From the NCBI GenBank assembly GCA_000092065.1, contig CP000592.1: a DNA stretch of 64,000 nucleotides, one strand, 5' to 3'. Of this stretch, positions 7,001 through 57,670 are shown piece by piece. Each line of letters starts with the position of its first letter. Position 1 is the stretch's first letter. This stretch comes from Ostreococcus lucimarinus. Taxonomy: Eukaryota. The notes under the pieces were generated by a model, which was given only the letters and a program-made list of their open reading frames with translations, did no database searches and was not told the DNA's origin. The position numbers were made by a program, and so were the translations under genes.

Positions 7001-7798
7001 CGTGAGAATCACTGAACCGTTGTTGATATAAATCATCGTCTCGATCGAACCGCCGTGGCAGTCTTCATCGTCGCTCGACGCGTTTGCTCGCATTATTTTG
7101 TACTGAACGCGCCCATCGACCCAGATTAGTAGAGCGCCATACTCTGTGCTCGTCAAAATCATATCATTAAAGGGTAACTCCAACACGCACGTGATATTGG
7201 ACAGAGGTTCGCCGTTGAACTTTCCAAGAGTACCTTGTAACTTCAATCCAGTAAACGTCTTGACCATCTGCCAAAACTGAATGTGACCAGCGCCGTGAGT
7301 GATCATTCGCTCCGAGTTAGCGCCTAGGAAGGATAAGTCAAACACTTCTTGTCCATACGCTTTGGCACGAAGGACTGTCTTTGCTGTCTTCCAGTCCCAC
7401 AAAGTGAGCCAATAGTCTGGGAGCCCACTCACGCTCGCGAGAAGCTGTCCGTCTGGAGAAAATTTTCCAGTCGAGTAACACGCCGCGGCGCCGCCGTGAA
7501 TCGTGTTTACGAGCTCAAGTGAAGGGTAACTATATATTGATATTCGGGGCGCCGCACCATTCTCGCCGATCGCAATGTGCGTGCCATCTCCATCCACGGC
7601 GACCAAGCCGATATTGCCCCCCTCCGCGCTCCGCAGGTACGTCTGCCTTTGTGTTTTCACGTCTCGCAAGGTCAAGAGATTTCCAACAGTGTACGCCACG
7701 ACTGAATCGCGTACTCGAGTCAAGTTGCCCCGTCGCTTGAAATCAAATCCAAAGCTGCACGCCAGGCAACCATGCTCGAGAGACTTATTTTTAGCCAT
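4025..7798 (-). CDS. Cilia/flagella-associated WD-repeat plus coiled-coil protein (CFAP43/44/57-like)
   Basis: This is an uninterrupted 1257-aa ORF. The N-terminal half has WD/beta-propeller-type repeats (ISIYSYPSLE, YWLTLWDWKTAK, HGAGHIQFWQM). The C-terminal ~600 aa are heptad-rich coiled coil. Size and layout match axonemal CFAP WD proteins. The sequence is visibly AT-richer than its neighbours. Confidence 0.7.
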   Translation of the reverse strand: MAKNKSLEHGCLACSFGFDFKRRGNLTRVRDSVVAYTVGNLLTLRDVKTQRQTYLRSAEGGNIGLVAVDGDGTHIAIGENGAAPRISIYSYPSLELVNTIHGGAAACYSTGKFSPDGQLLASVSGLPDYWLTLWDWKTAKTVLRAKAYGQEVFDLSFLGANSERMITHGAGHIQFWQMVKTFTGLKLQGTLGKFNGEPLSNITCVLELPFNDMILTSTEYGALLIWVDGRVQYKIMRANASSDDEDCHGGSIETMIYINNGSVILTAGDDGWVREWNIDEIRRVISSQSKGVVCMKPISERSIDGANIRHICALENKLFIQDSGRGLVCSLDDDDMERPVVSAHSGVITACETSLNSTHLITCDNIGEVHCYDYLSRAFLYKSRFSCSATALTNVPLNVNEDGRCIVVGFADGVVRVLVRNTSSWRLALALKPHAHAVEQFTWSSDGEYLAIAAANNTVFIFSSSSFASTLQFEPIGFIRLSARPKKIFWDGESIFGAQIEDEMHCFAVHRDLGESRKDSYEIDVTPRITTDVETKNAVDESFSAITYDNSYCVKICKSGSFEVHALSDASPSNTHSSIDEALCIYPEVEAIDTLSAQCASIEEVLQRERAKELSEEEAAALIRLSSLVALCRDEFNVIIEENAKLPREMRISGAELLVDDTQMRRIREDSVHWLKATHDKLQSSVMCAESVSNQLQKSYYDKIMALPRMIHSSSEALTCSSFALRAGSEGDWQTTTVAEATVHECEQEMRVVHVQNTCISENAHERQSIEGSEMSSEARRRFERLRRNEELRKLEKAEPLKDQTDDSEALKRDNLGDGFPLRCVPDSRVPPEDKLTTEGKLSELRYVDGQLRGNQSRFNREFDCIDAKDAVTDEDLISLCHLKADIIARSKVIELFRIVVHRELSVMPEYDVKNTEMQNAQRQAKEEVETARAAVENAQTAVNDQQTKLEGQNGVKAEIEATFDKFMIPGVPRAALLKVFHKRVVNKTEQKSDKGDSDSDLDSDFDDDSYYSSSDEENGDTCPKGCDSAVYERVCDLRLQRIEAMDAITEIQRALDGKKKIHDAALKKLRSLEENVRVLERDADAFEKVKQQSLNGLRTAFVLPVSCVETSQGDMDDMIIFSKTRLAELENKVVEWDAEVLKLKRQQQELKREHSSLIAQRSAKAKEFQSLQRKYSETQIRKFGKLIVLEDLDKVVNNGQGTEDLRDKLKVQELENARELREIKKDISNVEREVLNLTEAHTTCLNELLALRSVKV

Positions 7799-9223: not shown

Positions 9224-9557
9224 GTCGTCCGCGCGTCGTCGCGCGTTCGATCGAGCGAGCGATCGATCGCGCGCGCGCGTCCGCGAGTGTCGCGGCGCCG
9301 TCGCCCGACGCGCCCTGAGCGCCAAAACCCCGAGCCGTCGCCGTCCCCGACGCGCGCCGTCCTCGAACCCGAGGTCGGGTTCGGGCGATTCGGACGATTC
9401 GGACGGTTGGTTTCGGGCGCGCCGGTGGTTGATGGTTGACCGCGCGCGCGACGCGCGAGAGGACCGCGCGCGGACGACGACGACGGACGCGACGACGACG
9501 CGCGACGACGACGCGAGAAACGACGACGACCGACGGTAAAAGCGCGCGATCGACGAC

Positions 9558-10658
9558 ATGACGCCCGCGGTGACGCGCGAGGACGCGCGCGAGAAAGTCC
9601 CCACGGTGTCGCTCGAACTGTACGCGAAAGATTTCGAAAAGTTTGTCCACGACCTGGGAGAGGCGTACGAGCGATACGGATTCGTCATCTTGGAAAATCA
9701 TGGGATCGATCTGGAACTCATCGAACGCGCGATGGAACGCTCGAAGGCGTTCTTTGCGTGCGATGAGGAATGTAAGAAGAAGTACACGCTGCGCGGGTTG
9801 GGCGGCGCGCGCGGGTACACGGCGTTCGGAGTGGAGACGGCGAAGGGAGCGAACGCGCCTGGTGCGTGAAGGCGATGCGAAAAGTGATACTTTTTTGTTT
9901 TGATGCGTCGCGCTATAGCGCGTGTGATGGATTCGACGACGCGATTCGTTTGACTGACGCGAAGGATAACGTCGCCTCTCGCGCGCGCAGATTTGAAAGA
10001 GTTTTGGCACCTCGGGCGAGACTTGCCGGCGGGCCATAAGTACGAGTCGACGATGCCGCCGAATGTGGATGACGTGGTGGAAGTCGAAGGGTTTAGCGAA
10101 GTGAATAAGCAAATCTTCAACGCTCTAGATGAGCTCGGGAATTGCGTGCTCGAGGCGCTGGCGGTGCATCTGGAACAACCGCGCGAGTATTTCGCAGATA
10201 AGACGAACGAAGGCAACAGTATTTTGCGTATCATTCACTATCCACCAATTCCGCCTGATGCTGCGGGGCGCGTGCGCGCTGGTGCGCACGAGGATATCAA
10301 TCTCATCACGCTCCTGCTCGGCGCCGACGAGGGTGGTTTGCAACTCTTGGGAAAGGATGGAGAGTGGCTCGAAGTCAACCCGCCTCCCGGATGCGTGACG
10401 TGCAACATCGGTGACATGCTGCAACGCCTGTCGAATCACAAGCTTCCTTCGACGACGCACCGTGTCGTGAATCCTCCCGCGGAACGGGCGCACATTCCTC
10501 GATATTCCATGCCATTCTTTTTACATCCAAATCCAGACTTCGTCATCAAAACGCTGGAGTCGTGCATTTCGGATCAGTATCCCAATCGCTATCCAGAGCC
10601 CATTAGCTCTGATGAATACTTGCAGCAACGCCTTCGAGAGATTAAACTCAAATCATGA
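9558..10658 (+). CDS. 2-oxoglutarate/Fe(II)-dependent oxygenase (two exons: 9558-9861 and 9991-10658)
   Basis: The HxD...H iron triad is present ([18 protein letters not shown]). Intron 9862-9990 has a GTGCGT donor, a CTGAC branch and a CAG acceptor. It joins ...GANAP|DLKEFWHLG in frame (972 nt total). Confidence 0.8.
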
Positions 10659-15820: not shown

Positions 15821-15870
15821 CCACCTCGCGCGTCCTCGCGCGCGTCGCGCGCGCGTGTGTCGGGACGCGT

Positions 15871-15921
15871 TCGATTCGATTCGATTCGATTCCGGTTCGG
15901 TTCGGTTCGGTTCGGTTCGGT
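15871..15921. repeat. Compound pentanucleotide microsatellite (TCGAT)4 followed by (CGGTT)5
   Basis: Direct reading: tcgattcgattcgattcgat tc cggttcggttcggttcggttcggttcggt. It lies in the divergent spacer between the CSN4 and Kelch/EGF genes. Confidence 0.95.
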
Positions 15922-21865: not shown

Positions 21866-22936
21866 ATGGGCGACGAAGGCGACGCAATCGTCCCGACCGA
21901 CGCCGCGGCGACGAAGAAGGCGTCGTTCGGCGGCGGTGGGTTCAAGAAACGCGGCGCGAACGCGCGCGCGAACGCGCGAAAGCGCGCGGCGGCGTCGAGT
22001 TCGGACGACGACGACGGCGGTGGTGGTGGGTTCGATGACGGCGAAGACGAACAGAACGTCGGGCGTAAGAAGCGGAGTCAAGGCATCGTGGCATCCTCGC
22101 GCGATGGTAAAGGCAAGTACGAGAGGTTCGCATTTGAAGGTTCGAAGACGGTGCGGGCGCGCGGAGACATGGGGGCGACGGCGGAACTAGAGATCGATAC
22201 GAGCAAGGAGATGGATGGACGAGCGATGCGAGAACAGGTGCTGAAACAAGCCATCGACCGCGCCGATGGATTCGAGGACGACAAGAAGTATCGCGGGACG
22301 AATGCGTACGTGGACTATCGAGCCGGGTTCCGTCGCGAGCAGACGATTTCGAGCGAGAAGGGCCGAGGGGCGCACGGTCCGATGCGAGCGGCGACGAATA
22401 TTCGGTCGACTTTCGTCATGGACTACAAACCAGACATTTGCAAAGACTACAAGCAAACCGGTTTCTGTGGATGGGGCGACGCGTGCAAGTTTTTACACGA
22501 TAGAGGAGATTACAAACAAGGCTGGCAGCTCGACAAGGATTGGGAGCAAAAAGAACAGGCGCGCAAAGCGGCCGAAGCTCGCATGGCCAAGCTCGGCGAA
22601 GATGGCGTCGCGGAAGAGTCCGATGAAGAGTATGTCAACGACATCCCCGAATCTTGCGCGATTTGCGACACCTCCTGGCTCGAAGCGAAGTTTCCAGTCG
22701 CGACGGCGTGCGGACACTTTTTTTGCGAGCGCTGCGCGTTGCAACACAACGCCAAGCAAACGACGTGTTTCACGTGCGACAAAGAGACTGGAGGCACGTT
22801 TAACGCCGCTAAAGAAATCATCAAGCGCGTGAAAGAGTGCAAGGCCACCGGACGCGCGTGGGGGATGCGACAAAAGAAGGAAAAGCGCGCCGACGACAAG
22901 GCGCAATCCAATCAAGCGGGTTGGGTGCTCGGTTAA
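21866..22936 (+). CDS. CWC24: CCCH zinc-finger / RING protein, spliceosomal CWC24 / RNF113 homologue
   Basis: The C3H1 finger is CKDYKQTGFCGWGDACKFLH. It is followed by the RING CAICDTSW..ACGHFFCERCALQH....CFTC. ATG 21866 is used (ORF open from 21749). Confidence 0.85.
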   Translation: MGDEGDAIVPTDAAATKKASFGGGGFKKRGANARANARKRAAASSSDDDDGGGGGFDDGEDEQNVGRKKRSQGIVASSRDGKGKYERFAFEGSKTVRARGDMGATAELEIDTSKEMDGRAMREQVLKQAIDRADGFEDDKKYRGTNAYVDYRAGFRREQTISSEKGRGAHGPMRAATNIRSTFVMDYKPDICKDYKQTGFCGWGDACKFLHDRGDYKQGWQLDKDWEQKEQARKAAEARMAKLGEDGVAEESDEEYVNDIPESCAICDTSWLEAKFPVATACGHFFCERCALQHNAKQTTCFTCDKETGGTFNAAKEIIKRVKECKATGRAWGMRQKKEKRADDKAQSNQAGWVLG

Positions 22937-23015
22937 TAGTCACTAGTTAGAGTACGTTGATAAAAACAAGCAGCTAAGGCGGCGCAAATAACACAATCTT
23001 CGACGCGCTCGAACG

Positions 23016-23405
23016 TCACTTCGACGCTTCCTCCGGCGTCAGCGTCACCATTTCGTTCACCGCGTGCACTTGGTCTTGCAGTTCCATCCAAATGCACTTG
23101 TACACCATGCGTTGTCTATTCACCGAACTCTTCCCCTCGAACGCCTTGGACACGACTTTGATCGACACGTGTCGCGCGTTCCCGCTCTCGTCTCGCACGT
23201 CCACCGCGTCAGCCTCTAAGCCTTCCGCGATTTTCCCTCGCATCTGTTCCACGAGCGCGCTCGTGATGTTATTGCCCTCCCCCCCGCTCGCGAACGTTCG
23301 CGTCGCGCGCGCGGTCGCTCGCGCGGTCCGCGCGCACGCACCGCGCGCGCGCGCCGCGTGATTCACCCCCGCCGTCACCGCCGGTCGCACCAGCGCTCGC
23401 CACAT
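23016..23405 (-). CDS. BolA-like protein with presequence
   Basis: The C-terminal BolA fold signature is VDVRDESGNARHVSIKVVSKAFEGKSSVNRQRMVYK...VHAVNEMVTLTPEE. ATG 23405 (MWRALVRP) is used. The track ORF is over-extended through the 8-bp repeat to 24041. Confidence 0.8.
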   Translation of the reverse strand: MWRALVRPAVTAGVNHAARARGACARTARATARATRTFASGGEGNNITSALVEQMRGKIAEGLEADAVDVRDESGNARHVSIKVVSKAFEGKSSVNRQRMVYKCIWMELQDQVHAVNEMVTLTPEEASK

Positions 23406-23507
23406 CGTCGTCGTCGTCGTCGTCGCGGGTGTGACGTCGAAGTTCGTAAACCCCCGTCCGGGCGCCCCGAATCGAACGTCCCGGCGCGATTGCCGAAATC
23501 GGGAAAA

Positions 23508-23651
23508 ATCGAACAATCGAACAGTCGAAAAGTCGAACAATCGAACAGTCGAAACATCGAAAAGTCGAACAATCGAAAAGTCGAAACATCGAACAGTCGA
23601 AAAGTCGAACAATCGAAAAGTCGAAACATCGAACAGTCGAAAAGTCGAACC
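23508..23651. repeat. Tandem array of 18 copies of an 8-bp unit RTCGAAMM, with a 40-bp higher-order repeat
   Basis: The unit phase was verified copy by copy (ATCGAACA, GTCGAAAA, GTCGAAAC and similar). Segments 23572-23611 and 23612-23651 are identical except for the last base. The array lies between the divergent BolA-like (ATG 23405) and hydrolase (ATG 23757) genes. Confidence 0.97.
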
Positions 23652-23756
23652 GGCGTGCCCGGGCCCGGGTGCGGGTGCGGCCGTCGCGGACGACGACGAC
23701 CCACTTTGCGACGACGGTCGCGGTGCAGACGGCGTCGCGGCGTCGGGAACCCGACG

Positions 23757-24803
23757 ATGATGCTTCGTCGCGCGGCGACGACGTCGCGCGGCGCGGCGCG
23801 GCGCGAGCGCGCGTCCGCGGGACGACGACGTCGCGCGCGCGCGATGCCGACGCGGAGGCGAACGCGCGCGACCGCGGAGGCGTCGACGAGCGATGAGGAG
23901 GTGAAATATCACACGTGGCGAGGCCATCGCGTGGGGTATCGCGCGAGCGGCGATGAAGGGCGGGCGATCGTCCTCATTCACGGGTTCGGGGTGTCGAGCT
24001 TTCAGTTTAGAGATAACGTGCGCGCGCTCGGCGAACGCCATCGAGTGTACGCGTTGGATTTAGTGGGATTCGGAACGAGTGATCAACCAGACGTACCGTA
24101 CGCGATGGAATTTTGGAGAGATCAAGTGATCGACTTCGTGGAAAACGTCGTGGGCGAGCCGGCGGTGCTGGTGGGGAACAGCATCGGCTCGCTCGCGGCG
24201 GTGCACGTGGCGGCCGAGTCGCCGAAGACGACGGCGGGCATCGCCCTCATCAACTGCGCGGGGGGGATGAATAACAAAGTCAAACGCTTAGATGGAGATT
24301 TTGATGGATATGGGTGGCAATACAAGGCCGTGGTACCCATTTTCAGCGTCGTGTTGGCCATCATAGACGCGGTGTTGAAGGTGGAGCCGATCGCGAAACC
24401 GCTCTTTGAAAGCGTGAGAGGCGAAGAAAATGTGCGCGGCGCGCTCGCAAATGTGTACATGAATCCCAGTCGCGTCGATGACGGGTTGGTGAACTCTATT
24501 TGCGGCGCGGCGAACAGAGAAGGCGCGTTCAAGGCGTTCGTGAACATCTTAACGGGTCCCGCCGGGCCGCGTCCCGAGGAACTCATGCCTCGCGTCGCGT
24601 GTCCGATGCTCATCTTGTGGGGAAGCAAAGACACCATCACCCCGCTCGATTTCCCGCTCGGTCAATACTTTCTCAACCTTCCGAAAACACGACAGACGTC
24701 GCGAACGGACTTCATACAGTTTGAAGGCGAAGGACACTGCGTGCAAGACGACAATCCAAAACTCGTCAACGACGCGTTGACCGATTGGGTCGCCGCGCTT
24801 TAG
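23757..24803 (+). CDS. Alpha/beta-fold hydrolase with presequence (pheophytinase/epoxide-hydrolase-like family)
   Basis: Motifs present are IVLIHGFGVSS (oxyanion region), the nucleophile elbow GNSIGS and the C-terminal catalytic His in GEGHCVQDD. ATG 23757 (MMLRRAATT) is used. Confidence 0.85.
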   Translation: MMLRRAATTSRGAARRERASAGRRRRARAMPTRRRTRATAEASTSDEEVKYHTWRGHRVGYRASGDEGRAIVLIHGFGVSSFQFRDNVRALGERHRVYALDLVGFGTSDQPDVPYAMEFWRDQVIDFVENVVGEPAVLVGNSIGSLAAVHVAAESPKTTAGIALINCAGGMNNKVKRLDGDFDGYGWQYKAVVPIFSVVLAIIDAVLKVEPIAKPLFESVRGEENVRGALANVYMNPSRVDDGLVNSICGAANREGAFKAFVNILTGPAGPRPEELMPRVACPMLILWGSKDTITPLDFPLGQYFLNLPKTRQTSRTDFIQFEGEGHCVQDDNPKLVNDALTDWVAAL

Positions 24804-30341: not shown

Positions 30342-30372
<31 letters not shown>

Positions 30373-30462
30373 GCGCGCGCGCGTCGCGAGCCGTCGTCGC
30401 GCGACGACGTCGCCGCATCGCGCGCGCGTCATCACCGCGCGCGCCGTCGCCATCGCTCGCAT
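29548..30462 (-). CDS. rimP: RimP-like ribosome maturation factor with organellar presequence
   Basis: The C-terminal half resembles RimP (SPTLDELTTIVRAHNAILD....VELASPGAMRSLRVPRELERFRDLVMDV). An acidic linker and an R/A/T-rich presequence precede it. ATG 30462 is used. Confidence 0.65.
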
Positions 30463-30590
30463 CGTCGCGCGTCGCGACGTCGCGTCGTCGCGATGTCGCG
30501 ACCGAACGCGCCGAACGCGCGACGACGCGACGACGCCGCCGATCGCGACATCGCGACGCCGACGACGCCGACGACCCGAGCGCGACGGCG

Positions 30591-33394: not shown

Positions 33395-34414
33395 TCACTG
33401 CGTCGGGGCGCCGTGGATGTTGTTTGATCCTATGCGATATTTGACGGGCTTGGCGGAGACGCCGTACACGATGGAGGCGCTGTGCCAACCAGTGCCTGGA
33501 ATCTTGGATAACCGTATCCGACGGTGCGGCACGGCCGTCCAACGCGTCCCGAGAGCGGGCTTCAAGTTACTCCCGTGATCGTCCGCGAGTGAATCTTGAC
33601 CGGCGCTCACCGTGTGGTTGGTGTAGAGCGCCGCCGTCTTTCGCGTCGTCGCCAGGCCGCGAAGCATGGCGGCCACCGTGGCCATGATGGTGTACCCTTG
33701 ATGATGCGCCTTCGTCAGCAAGGGTGACAGCAACGCGGAAAGCGAATCTATCACGAGTAATCCCATGGTGGCGCGCTCCGGATTGTTATCGTCCTCGCTC
33801 GCCTCTTCGCCGAGTTGCGACAGTAAAGTTAACAACGAAAACACGTCGTGACACTTGTGAACGGCGATCAAATTCAGCGTCTTGTCCAAGTGCTCCTCCA
33901 CCACCGCCTTTTCCGCGTCCTCGGCGAAGAACCCACGATGTAACTGCTTGATTCGGGTCGCCGAAAACCCGCCGGTGGTGTCCACGTACACGACTCGATT
34001 ATCGAGCGCCGCGAAACTCGCCGCCGCGCTCAGACACAACTGCGTCTTCCCGCTCGCGCTCGGCCCCGTGATCTCGATCAACTGCCCTTGTCGTAATCCC
34101 CCCCCCAACAGCTCATCGATCGCGTCGCATCCCGTGGGTAAGATCTCCAACAAGCTCAACTGTCGCTCGACGTCCGAGCCGTTCACCGCGTTCGCGCACG
34201 TCTCGTTATAAATCTCCTCCACGATCGCCCGTCGTCGCGCCTCCGCCCCGCCGCGCCCCATCGACCGTCGTCGCGCTCCCCCACCGCCCGTCCCGTCCCC
34301 GTCGCGCCCGTTTCCGTCGTCGTCGCCGCACAGCGCGTCCGCGAGCGCGCGATTTTTCGCCAGCGCCCGTCGCGCGCGCGCCGTCTCGCGCGCCCTCGCG
34401 TCGTCCGCCTCCAT
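33395..34414 (-). CDS. RAD51 paralogue (RecA-fold ATPase; the subfamily among RAD51C, RAD51D and XRCC3 is unresolved)
   Basis: Walker A is ITGPSASGKTQLCL and Walker B-like is LLVIDSLSALL. A C-terminal KPALGTRW motif is present. Confidence 0.72.
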   Translation of the reverse strand: MEADDARARETARARRALAKNRALADALCGDDDGNGRDGDGTGGGGARRRSMGRGGAEARRRAIVEEIYNETCANAVNGSDVERQLSLLEILPTGCDAIDELLGGGLRQGQLIEITGPSASGKTQLCLSAAASFAALDNRVVYVDTTGGFSATRIKQLHRGFFAEDAEKAVVEEHLDKTLNLIAVHKCHDVFSLLTLLSQLGEEASEDDNNPERATMGLLVIDSLSALLSPLLTKAHHQGYTIMATVAAMLRGLATTRKTAALYTNHTVSAGQDSLADDHGSNLKPALGTRWTAVPHRRIRLSKIPGTGWHSASIVYGVSAKPVKYRIGSNNIHGAPTQ

Positions 34415-54627: not shown

Positions 54628-54710
54628 CGAACCGAACCGCGCCGAACCGCGCCGAACCGCGCCGAACCGCGCCGAACCGCGCCGAACCGCGCCGAACCGA
54701 ACCGATCCGC
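54628..54710. repeat. Tandem decamer array (GCCGAACCGC), 5 exact plus 2 near copies
   Basis: Exact copies of gccgaaccgc start at 54641, 54651, 54661, 54671 and 54681. They are flanked by accgaaccgc and gccgaaccga. The array lies 35-117 nt upstream of ATG 54593 of the ERO1-fusion gene (minus strand). Confidence 0.95.
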
Positions 54711-55294: not shown

Positions 55295-56224
55295 ATGGGG
55301 AGGGGGACGGGGAGCGACGCGACGGCGCGGGCGGCGGAGGCGAGGACGAGGGCGCGGGACGACGACGCGAGGGCGGACGCGCGGGGCGACGCGAACGCGA
55401 ACGCGAACGCGAACGCGAACGCGAACGCGAACGCGGCGAGACCGCCGTATGCGGCGATGACGGTGTATCCGGCGGTGTACGGGGCGTACGATGCGATGCG
55501 AGCGATGTCGCCGATGACGTACGACGCGTACGCGGGCGCGGCGCGCGCGGTGGCGGTGCCGGGGGATTCGTTTTCGAGACAGATTCAGGAGCGGGCGTAC
55601 GCGAGCGCGTTTACGTTTACGCGGCAGTGGAATTATTTGCAACACGCGGCGGCGGCGCAGCACGCGGCGTTCGCGTCGGGGAGTCGTGGGGGTGGAACGA
55701 TGATGGATCTTCTCGCCGCCACCGGTTCGGCGGCGGCTGAGCGCGATATCGGCGTCGAGCGCGAGGTGGAGCTGAGCAAGCGACAGCGGTTGGTGTGGAC
55801 GCCGCAACTGCACGCGCAATTCATCGCGGCGGTGCAAAAGCTCGGGGTTAAGACGGCGGTGCCGAAGGCGATTATGAAAATAATGAATGTCAAAGGGTTG
55901 ACGCGTGAAAACGTCGCTTCGCATTTGCAGAAGTATCGTCTGACGCTCAAACGAGCGCAGGATAGCTCTGAATCGACCCGGGCGTCGGGAGACGCGACAG
56001 ACGCGAAGAGAAGCGACGTCCGCGCGGGACGTAAGAGGAAAGATCGCGAAGAAAAAGGTAAAACCAACAGTGGAAGCGGCCAGGGAAGCGGCCAGGGAAG
56101 TGACGGTGGAAGTGCCGAGCATAGCGCGAGTGAAAACCTCGAGAATCGCGCCAAGCGAATTTCTTCCAGCGAAGAAGAAGAGACGCGACAAATTACGCTC
56201 GCCGTCGACCACAACGACGAATAA
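55295..56224 (+). CDS. GARP (G2-like) Myb-related transcription factor
   Basis: The GARP domain is [55 protein letters not shown], containing the SHLQKYR signature. The start is uncertain between ATG 55295 and ATG 55457, the latter just after the (GCGAAC)7 array. Confidence 0.8.
55391..55435. repeat. Hexanucleotide array (GCGAAC)7
   Basis: The sequence gcgaac repeats 7 times. It encodes (AN)7 if ATG 55295 is used, or lies 22-66 nt upstream of ATG 55457. Confidence 0.95.
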
Positions 56225-56410: not shown

Positions 56411-57670
56411 TCACACTTTGTTTTGCTCCTCCTCGAGAAAGTAAATCACGGGTTTGAGCTCGAACGGAAGGGGAGAAGTATTGTCGTACGCGGGCAGATC
56501 AACTGGACGTTGCGACGGCGGTAGCGACGCGTACGCCGACGCCTTGGTTCGCTTCGTGTACTCGTCTCGCAACTCCTTGACGGTTTTCAGCGCGTAAAGC
56601 AGCATCGCGTACGCTCGAGGCGGCGACTCGGGCGAGCGAGATGAACGCTTGAGCTTGGACAAAATCACTCGAAAGCAAGCCTCCATGCGATCCCACGCCT
56701 CGGTGAGCTCGGCGATTTTTCTCGTCCAATACGTATCGTGCCACGCCGCGTGTGCTTCGCCTTGCAGGTGAAACATTCTAATCCATTGAAATTCAACCTC
56801 GCGATGGACGTCGGCTAAGAACTGTATCTGTTTCGCATCCAAAGGTTTATTCTCGCGCTCTAAGTCTGGTACAATTGCGAGCGCATCGATACACCGCCTT
56901 TTGATGTACTGGAACGTATCCTTGGCCACCACGGCGACTCGATGTGTCGAAGAATATCTCGCACTCGAGCCGGTGAGCACGGCGTGATGGTGAGTGGCGT
57001 TGAACTCACCACACATGTAATACGTCGCTTTATCCTCCAAAGGCACGCAAAGCACCTCGCACTCCGCGTTCAACGCCCTCAGCGCCACTCGCCAGTCTTT
57101 TCTCTCTGGCGCCTCGTATGTGTGATACACCGCCACGGTGGAGTTTTCTCGCAACGACGAATCGCTGTGCCAACTCACCGACGTCGTCCCGAGATCGAAC
57201 TTCTCCTCATTCCGTAGCTCTATTTCGCTCTCACCCTCTGTTTCCATGTAATTAATCAGCGTCACGTTGTATTCGCACTCACTCTCCGCGAACGCTCCGC
57301 CGAGCTTTTCGCATCGCTCTCGCGCGCTCCTCGTCAGCGTCTCGTTCAACCGTCTCACCACTTCGTACGCCTCCCGTCCGCGCCACGGTTGCGCAAACAG
57401 GCGTAACTTCTGATAATGATACGTCATTCCGTCCTCACCGAGCAGGCAGCGCCGCACGTACGTCGTGGACACTTTATTTCCGGCGGAAACGACGTCGTGC
57501 GTGAATTCGCCTCGGCTGCGCATGTCGTCGAACGCGCGTTCGACGTCGTCGTGAAGCGACGCGGGAAGCACCGAGGGCGCGTCCACGACGAAACCGCGGT
57601 AGTGCGCTCGATGGACGCGCGCGAACGGTTCGCCGTCCTCGGGTTCGAGCACGGAGGATGACGGCGACAT
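56411..57670 (-). CDS. FTO: FTO-like 2-oxoglutarate/Fe(II) dioxygenase (AlkB-related nucleic-acid demethylase homologue)
   Basis: The product is collinear with human FTO. Matches include YNVTLINYM, VSWHSDSSLRENSTVAVYHTY (HxD), NATHHHAVLTGSSARYSSTHRVA (His plus 2OG-binding Arg), HREVEFQWIRMFHLQG and the C-terminal SPLPFELKPV. Confidence 0.9.
   Translation of the reverse strand: MSPSSSVLEPEDGEPFARVHRAHYRGFVVDAPSVLPASLHDDVERAFDDMRSRGEFTHDVVSAGNKVSTTYVRRCLLGEDGMTYHYQKLRLFAQPWRGREAYEVVRRLNETLTRSARERCEKLGGAFAESECEYNVTLINYMETEGESEIELRNEEKFDLGTTSVSWHSDSSLRENSTVAVYHTYEAPERKDWRVALRALNAECEVLCVPLEDKATYYMCGEFNATHHHAVLTGSSARYSSTHRVAVVAKDTFQYIKRRCIDALAIVPDLERENKPLDAKQIQFLADVHREVEFQWIRMFHLQGEAHAAWHDTYWTRKIAELTEAWDRMEACFRVILSKLKRSSRSPESPPRAYAMLLYALKTVKELRDEYTKRTKASAYASLPPSQRPVDLPAYDNTSPLPFELKPVIYFLEEEQNKV

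Follow-up and report, generated by a model that had tools for sequence, protein, structure and literature searches.

The divergently transcribed genes for a BolA-like protein and an alpha/beta-hydrolase in Ostreococcus lucimarinus share an upstream spacer of 351 bp, the middle of which is taken up by 18 copies of an 8-bp repeat. O. lucimarinus has one of the most compact genomes among eukaryotes, and the locus raises the question of what such an array represents in the common 5' region of two genes. A preliminary description of the 64,000-nucleotide stretch of DNA analysed here (hereinafter, the window) proposed two answers, namely, a promoter-associated cis-element that tends to expand and recurs upstream of other genes, or a motif that is locally favoured for slippage. 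The evidence presented below points, with a probability of about 0.7, to a young, species-specific, hypermutable octanucleotide VNTR that is embedded in the shared 5' spacer and whose role there would not go beyond that of AT-rich spacer DNA with a tunable length.

The spacer and its two genes were delimited correctly in the preliminary description, as attested by the ATG codons at 23405 (minus strand) and 23757 (plus strand) and by the Pfam domains of the two products. The features of the locus are as follows.

23016..23405, minus strand: BolA-like gene, 129 aa, PF01722, ATG at 23405
23405-23425: (TCG)7 abutting the BolA ATG, length-polymorphic in the population, with alleles of 18 and 21 bp
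23406..23507, unstranded: BolA-proximal unique flank, 102 bp
23432-23438: TGACGTC box (ACGT/CRE-like) in the BolA-proximal flank
23447-23453: TAAACCC box (telo-box-like) in the BolA-proximal flank
23492..23507, unstranded: two degenerate in-register units, GCCGAAAT and CGGGAAAA, at the BolA-side edge of the array
23508..23651, unstranded: array of 18 x 8 bp, RTCGAAMM (VNTR), in tandem form (NTCGAANN)n, GC 0.40
23564..23603, unstranded: 40-bp higher-order repeat, copy 1, units C-E-D-A-B (string identity, TRF)
23604..23643, unstranded: 40-bp higher-order repeat, copy 2 (string identity)
23652..23756, unstranded: hydrolase-proximal unique flank, 105 bp, GC-rich
23666-23680: (CGGGTG)2.5 repeat in the hydrolase-proximal flank, length-polymorphic, with alleles of 9, 15 and 17 bp
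23757..24803, plus strand: alpha/beta-hydrolase gene, 348 aa, PF12697 and PF00561, ATG at 23757

The hydrolase is identical to XP_001420632.1 of O. lucimarinus CCE9901 over all 280 amino acids of the latter, and the product of a neighbouring kinase gene differs from the common variant in 3 of the 751 residues. For CCE9901 itself, a look-up of its partial protein led only to a 1.3-kb Logan contig that does not include the spacer. A scan of the region 22900-24000 against Rfam yielded only sub-threshold matches at the chance level.

When the segment 23508-23651 is read in 8-bp steps, it resolves into 18 units in exact register, each of the form [A/G]TCGAA[A/C][A/C], so that the phased array claimed in the preliminary description is fully borne out. 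With the units coded as A = ATCGAACA, B = GTCGAAAA, C = GTCGAACA, D = GTCGAAAC, E = ATCGAAAA and z = GTCGAACC, the order in the window allele is AABCADECEDABCEDABz, in which the five-unit, 40-bp block CEDAB is tandemly doubled. This higher-order duplication, also noticed previously, was recovered both by string comparison, 23564-23603 being identical to 23604-23643, and by TRF as a period of 40. Indeed, the periods 40, 24 and 16 that TRF assigns to this array have the three top scores in the window (213, 203 and 168, respectively). All 17 phased pairs of the form TCGAANNNTCGAA that are present in the 64-kb window fall inside the array, compared to an expectation of 0.94 from dinucleotide shuffles, none of which (0/100) reached 17; the array is the sole phased TCGAA array within the window. 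Its GC content of 0.40 is, as reported before, much lower than that of the flanks (0.64-0.80), and the array is also AT-rich compared to the CG-rich arrays of the window (median array GC 0.76 by TRF). Length, AT-richness and instability are the traits that make this array unusual within the window. The suggestion that successive sites lie on different helical faces is a matter of simple arithmetic, 8 bp amounting to about 274 degrees of twist.

For an examination of the array in conspecific haplotypes, we used marine metagenome contigs, including those from Tara Oceans, of chromosome scale and of 30-265 kb, that were found by exact-protein look-up. Ten contigs that were aligned to the window across 21 kb showed 99.38-99.92% identity to it and therefore represent conspecific haplotypes. 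Altogether, 27 distinct conspecific contigs were available, 22 of them resolved at the array and the remaining five being scaffolds with an N gap exactly there. The resolved contigs carry 16 distinct alleles, with about 4 to 24 units and an allele diversity of approximately 0.9; the comparison between strains envisaged in the preliminary description thus finds the array to be variable. The alleles are as follows.

8 units: ECFFFACz
9 units: AFECEDABz and AFECEDACy
10 units: EDECCEDACz
12 units: CFEBDEFADACz
15, 17 and 24 units: one size class each among the resolved contigs
18 units: the window allele
19 units: CFFEBCEDADFFECEDACy
about 17-18 units: three alleles with 1-bp indels
irregular (contig L006, spacer 9749-10000): about four TCGAAC motifs at spacings of 8, 13 and 12 bp
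interrupted (contig L162): a unique 25-bp insert, GACCAATTCCCGTGGGACGCGTTTT, in place of most of the array, with 3 and 2 units on either side

The 10-unit allele and the 19-unit allele were each recovered four times, across independent samples and assemblers, which is evidence against assembly noise. The copy numbers come mostly from short-read metagenome assemblies, and the array, at 64-192 bp, approaches the read and k-mer length, so some of the individual alleles may be mis-assembled. The 7-bp units in L010, L156 and L163 are of the kind that is typical of long-read indel errors, and the core changes to TCTAA and TAGAA in L142 (G>T and C>A), which occur in this one contig only, look like sequencing damage artefacts; the allele of L142 appears four times otherwise without these changes. 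The irregular form belongs to the most divergent of the conspecific haplotypes (L006, 99.38%) and is either the state that preceded the expansion or a decayed array; L008 has the same flank variant and yet carries 15 units. In L162, the spacer with the 25-bp insert precedes the hydrolase gene at 7277.

No other element in the 21-kb alignment contributes nearly as much length variation as the array. Among the 39 arrays detected by TRF in these 21 kb, 12 are length-polymorphic, mostly by no more than 16 bp, compared to a range of 47-148 bp, with 7 length alleles in 10 haplotypes, for the array in question, which is by far the widest of the 39. Alleles are set apart from one another by inserted or deleted blocks, for example (ED)n, CEDA or CEDAB, and units are gained and lost both singly and in blocks of 2, 4 or 5 (16, 32 or 40 bp). 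The hydrolase-side end, ...CEDA[B/C][z/y], is common to most alleles and, on the other side, the degenerate stretch 23492-23507 is found, with minor variants, in all resolved conspecific alleles except for that of L162. Contigs that show no differences over approximately 1.5 kb of flanking sequence harbour 9, 12, 19 or 24 units, and therefore the array evolves much faster than substitutions accumulate in its flanks. Head-to-tail units in register, 18 of them in the window, and a copy number that varies between the same flanks are properties of a VNTR, and the array displays both in these metagenome assemblies. For this array, the slippage alternative of the preliminary description is accordingly supported, given that copy number differs between otherwise identical haplotypes. 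Among the TRF arrays of the same 21 kb, the second most polymorphic (5 length alleles, 222-235 bp) is a 234-bp CG-rich composite array of period 8, CGTCGCGA, at 30342-30575, where two divergent genes have their 5' ends.

O. tauri (L011) and three Ostreococcus-like lineages, with hydrolase identities of 84% for O. tauri and of 86% (L012), 72% (L013-L015) and 73% (L016-L017) for the other three, keep the divergent order of the BolA-like and hydrolase genes, and in none of these syntenic spacers was the array found. The orthologous spacers contain 0-2 scattered TCGAA each, which is about the chance level, so that these promoters, in O. tauri and the three further lineages, lack the conservation that marks a cis-motif. 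What the spacers have in common is composition: in every spacer compared, GC content dips to a local minimum somewhat closer to the BolA gene than the midpoint, at 0.30-0.46 of the spacer length, and in L013 and L016 this minimum (GC 0.26-0.28) is a non-repetitive, TATA-like sequence. Judging from position and composition, the O. lucimarinus array appears to occupy and expand the place of the AT-richer core in the sister species. By contrast with the array, the TGACGTC and TAAACCC boxes, located 27-48 bp from the BolA ATG, are both present at similar offsets in O. tauri and recur in part in L012 (inverted), L013 and L016, and these boxes would be likelier candidates for promoter cis-elements than the array.

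The other part of the preliminary proposal, a recurrent promoter cis-element, rested on four further short arrays upstream of start codons (9377-9416, 15871-15921, 54628-54710 and 55391-55435). These arrays do exist and contain CGAAC or CGAAT on one or the other strand; the recurrence of a shared core, however, is not supported. The gene map used for this analysis is approximate, being based on codon-usage-scored ORFs with trimmed starts, and matches the metagenome gene calls where the two overlap. The hexamer TCGAAC occurs 97 times in the 64-kb window, nine of these in the array, against 100 +/- 10 expected. In the 7.5 kb of 5'-5' spacers of the window, with the focal array removed, there is no excess over dinucleotide shuffles of TCGAA (z -0.6), CGAAC (z -0.1) or CGAAT (z -2.9), and hence no enrichment of CGAAC/CGAAT at the 5' regions covered; the over-represented words in these spacers are CGCGC, CGACG and GACGA. 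Of the DNA in the 5'-5' spacers, 25% consists of tandem arrays, whatever their sequence, compared to 12% of the tandem spacers, 7% of the 3'-3' spacers and 5% of the coding DNA, so the location of arrays upstream of starts is a general property of the arrays rather than a property of CGAA. Only 4 of the 131 merged arrays in the window contain at least three CGAA[C/T], and the only one of these that the population sample covers, the (GTTCG)n array (15869-15921), has one and the same length in 11 of 11 haplotypes. Together with the lack of the focal array in the four other Ostreococcus lineages, these observations count against a recurrent cis-element, and the best explanation for the shared CGAA core is that 5' DNA is rich in CpG and GA.

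In the window, the starts of genes differ strongly in composition from their ends. The divergent (5'-5') spacers are up to 1.4 kb long, with a GC content of 0.58-0.80, and the convergent (3'-3') spacers are mostly 32-190 bp long and AT-rich (GC 0.18-0.59). One of the CGAA-containing arrays, (GCGAAC)7 at 55389-55435, precedes an in-frame ATG (55457) by 22 bp; with an ORF start at 55295, it would be translated as (AN)7. Two Logan contigs, L146 and L147, start exactly within (GCGAAC)7, which indicates that this array breaks k-mer assemblies.

Within the focal array, the distribution of substitutions is conspicuously uneven. Positions 2-6 (TCGAA) are the same throughout the 141 units scored in 10 clean alleles, whereas the linker positions 1, 7 and 8 are polymorphic at near 50:50, with all eight combinations present. 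By a hand estimate that assumes uniform mutation and allows recombination within the core, at least 4-5 independent linker changes are required, without a core change, the probability of which is approximately (3/8)^4 to (3/8)^5, or 0.02-0.007. The pattern departs from that of a neutral array with uniform mutation, and selection on the core could account for it; it could equally be explained if only units with an intact palindromic TCGA join the amplification. When folded as single-stranded DNA, the array forms a chain of 4-bp TCGA/TCGA mini-hairpins, one per two units, with a minimum free energy of -23.2 kcal/mol compared to -15.5 +/- 2.4 kcal/mol for shuffled sequences (z = -3.2); the stems are weak, and few of them are retained in the centroid structure.

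Could the array nevertheless be an expanded cis-regulatory element in which each TCGAA(A/C) unit binds a sequence-specific factor and copy number sets the output of one or both divergent promoters? The constancy of the core next to a variable linker across the 141 units is what such an element would display, the spacer contains further copies of TCGAA(C) outside the array (23437 and 23472), L006 retains its four TCGAAC motifs despite their irregular spacing, and the array lies centrally in the bidirectional spacer, separated from the ATGs on either side by 102 and 105 bp. Nevertheless, we consider this explanation rather unlikely: neither the position nor the number of the motifs is conserved in the orthologous spacers, the remaining 5' spacers of the window show no enrichment of the motif, wild haplotypes with identical adjacent coding sequences get by with anything from 4 to 24 copies, and the constant core is also expected if slippage involves only units with intact TCGA. 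Furthermore, RTCGAAMM is not known to correspond to the site of any plant or algal factor, and none of the candidate motifs considered, namely, HSE, MYB YAACNG, E2F and DRE, appears to fit the 8-bp unit. Specific binding sites for a factor are thus probably not what the units of the array represent, and its copy number appears to be weakly constrained. In a stronger variant of the same idea, which strikes us as unlikely, the TCGAA core is kept by selection because it is read by a lineage-specific DNA-binding factor or by a reader of CpG/TCGA methylation, with copy number (4-24) serving as a fast, reversible rheostat; if that were the case, the BolA-like/hydrolase array would be an analogue, in eukaryotic phytoplankton, of contingency loci.

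Selection could also act on length rather than on the motif, such that the alleles are maintained as a tuning knob for heritable, reversible differences in the expression of the BolA-like and hydrolase genes, via spacing or nucleosome exclusion. The presence of numerous intermediate-frequency alleles in a population that is mixed worldwide, the AT-rich composition within GC-rich 5' DNA and the experimental support for an analogous class in yeast promoters are all compatible with this possibility, which we nevertheless regard as quite improbable, given that a high mutation rate by itself predicts high allele diversity and that sister species have the same gene pair without the array. As for the array being an artefact or something else altogether (an assembly error, a low-complexity N-terminal extension of a protein, or a transposon/MITE fragment), this is highly improbable. 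Some scaffolds are, indeed, gapped at the array, and ORFs do run through it on both strands, prokaryotic gene callers extending BolA through the array to 157-188 aa. However, an assembly artefact was rejected because over 20 independent assemblies besides the window contain the array, with reproducible unit orders; a coding role is excluded because the clean allele lengths (64, 72, 80, 96, 120, 136, 144, 152 and 192 bp) cover all three residue classes (0, 1 and 2) modulo 3; and a transposon or MITE was rejected because there are no phased copies elsewhere in the window and the flanks are unique and nearly unchanged within the species. A protein search with the minus-strand translation of the array returned zero matches, missing the known BolA-extended ORFs as well.

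Under the preferred reading, that of a young hypermutable VNTR, copy number would change by replication slippage and/or by unequal exchange between sister chromatids or alleles. The self-complementary TCGA core may aid this process, with adjacent units mispairing out of register or making 4-bp mini-hairpins; such hairpins could stabilise slipped intermediates, which would be consistent with the frequent two-unit (ED) steps. The simplest view of its function is that of an AT-rich, probably nucleosome-disfavouring spacer, the length of which would set the distance between the two core promoters; in nature, this length ranges over approximately 30-190 bp while the adjacent coding sequences stay the same. 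Since the array appears to be situated at the site of the non-repetitive AT-richer core of the sister species, any function that it has is most likely a generic one.

Several known systems bear on this reading. As in other VNTRs, the units are arranged head to tail between unique, conserved flanks and many copy-number alleles coexist in one species; the maps of variant repeats show higher-order blocks, the hydrolase-side end is the more stable one, and change in the array outpaces that in the flanks. Unlike the usual VNTRs, the array has an 8-bp unit that falls between microsatellites (1-6 bp) and minisatellites (at least 10 bp), it is AT-rich among CG-rich arrays, and its 5-bp core is strictly invariant. 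Tandem repeats in yeast promoters that alter nucleosome positioning and expression are, by the account of Vinces et al. 2009 as cited in PMC3887541, an established class and, in land plants, tandem repeats concentrate in 5' UTRs and in the first 200 nt upstream (PMC3887541). As far as that cited account goes, the algal array resembles the unstable promoter repeats of budding yeast in its location in the shared upstream region of two genes, in being AT-richer and in being polymorphic in natural isolates; its membership in this functional class is putative. Closer to O. lucimarinus, promoter INDEL markers type strains of Bathycoccus prasinos (PMC11539686), and here, too, a promoter or intergenic length polymorphism in a picoalga of the Mamiellales separates near-identical strains and is visible in environmental DNA, although each Bathycoccus marker has two or three alleles, with indels that measure hundreds of base pairs, whereas the array described here is multi-allelic and changes in 8-bp steps. 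Neither this repeat nor any promoter minisatellite of Ostreococcus came up in full-text searches of the literature.

From a practical standpoint, the array could be used as a strain-typing marker in cultures and metagenomes of a cosmopolitan picoalga whose haplotypes are only 0.1-0.6% apart elsewhere, and it is a place where metagenome assemblies of O. lucimarinus recurrently break or have an N gap. In addition, the natural allelic series, with approximately 30-190 bp of AT-rich DNA, offers a system for the study of spacing effects on bidirectional promoters. As a regulatory discovery, the array matters little, being devoid of conservation, with a motif that is not enriched in the 5' regions of the window.

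Arrays with the same 8-bp period and TCGAA core, located upstream of genes, are also found in the phage contigs L151 and L152 and in other metagenome contigs; these come from unrelated organisms, have other linker bases and lack homology to the algal locus in their flanks, which shows only that TCGAA octamer arrays arise repeatedly. Four viral contigs contain other TCGAA octamer arrays, some of them upstream of genes. In L151 (2761-2789), L152 (4593-4621; one IMG/VR contig) and L150 (a giant-virus MAG), these are intergenic arrays of (ACGTCGAA)n or (AATCGAAC)n that directly precede ORFs, with inverted copies near one of them; such viral arrays may be operator- or iteron-like and unrelated to the algal locus. 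A metagenome scan with a generic pattern of four phased TCGAA units gave, among the matches listed, soil, rumen and other unrelated contigs and no Ostreococcus loci. The matches listed also include octamer arrays of ATCGAAAC, ATCGAAGC or ATCGAAAT in L032, L061, L051, L064, L115, L022, L063 and others, which may constitute a repeat family of some uncultured organism.

Two other loci in the window deserve mention. A 67-bp segment at 34233-34299, in the GC-rich 5' part of a Rad51-like ORF (33395-34414, minus strand), is a presence/absence polymorphism that is missing in L005; the gene calls for this ORF are 339 aa long and go down to 275-288 aa in L003 and L005, so the segment may not be coding but belong to a 5' UTR or an intron. 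At 56411-57670 (minus strand), this green picoalga harbours a gene for an FTO-like dioxygenase with both the N-terminal and the C-terminal FTO domains (PF12933 and PF12934), and the exact variant of this protein was found in only 4 contigs.
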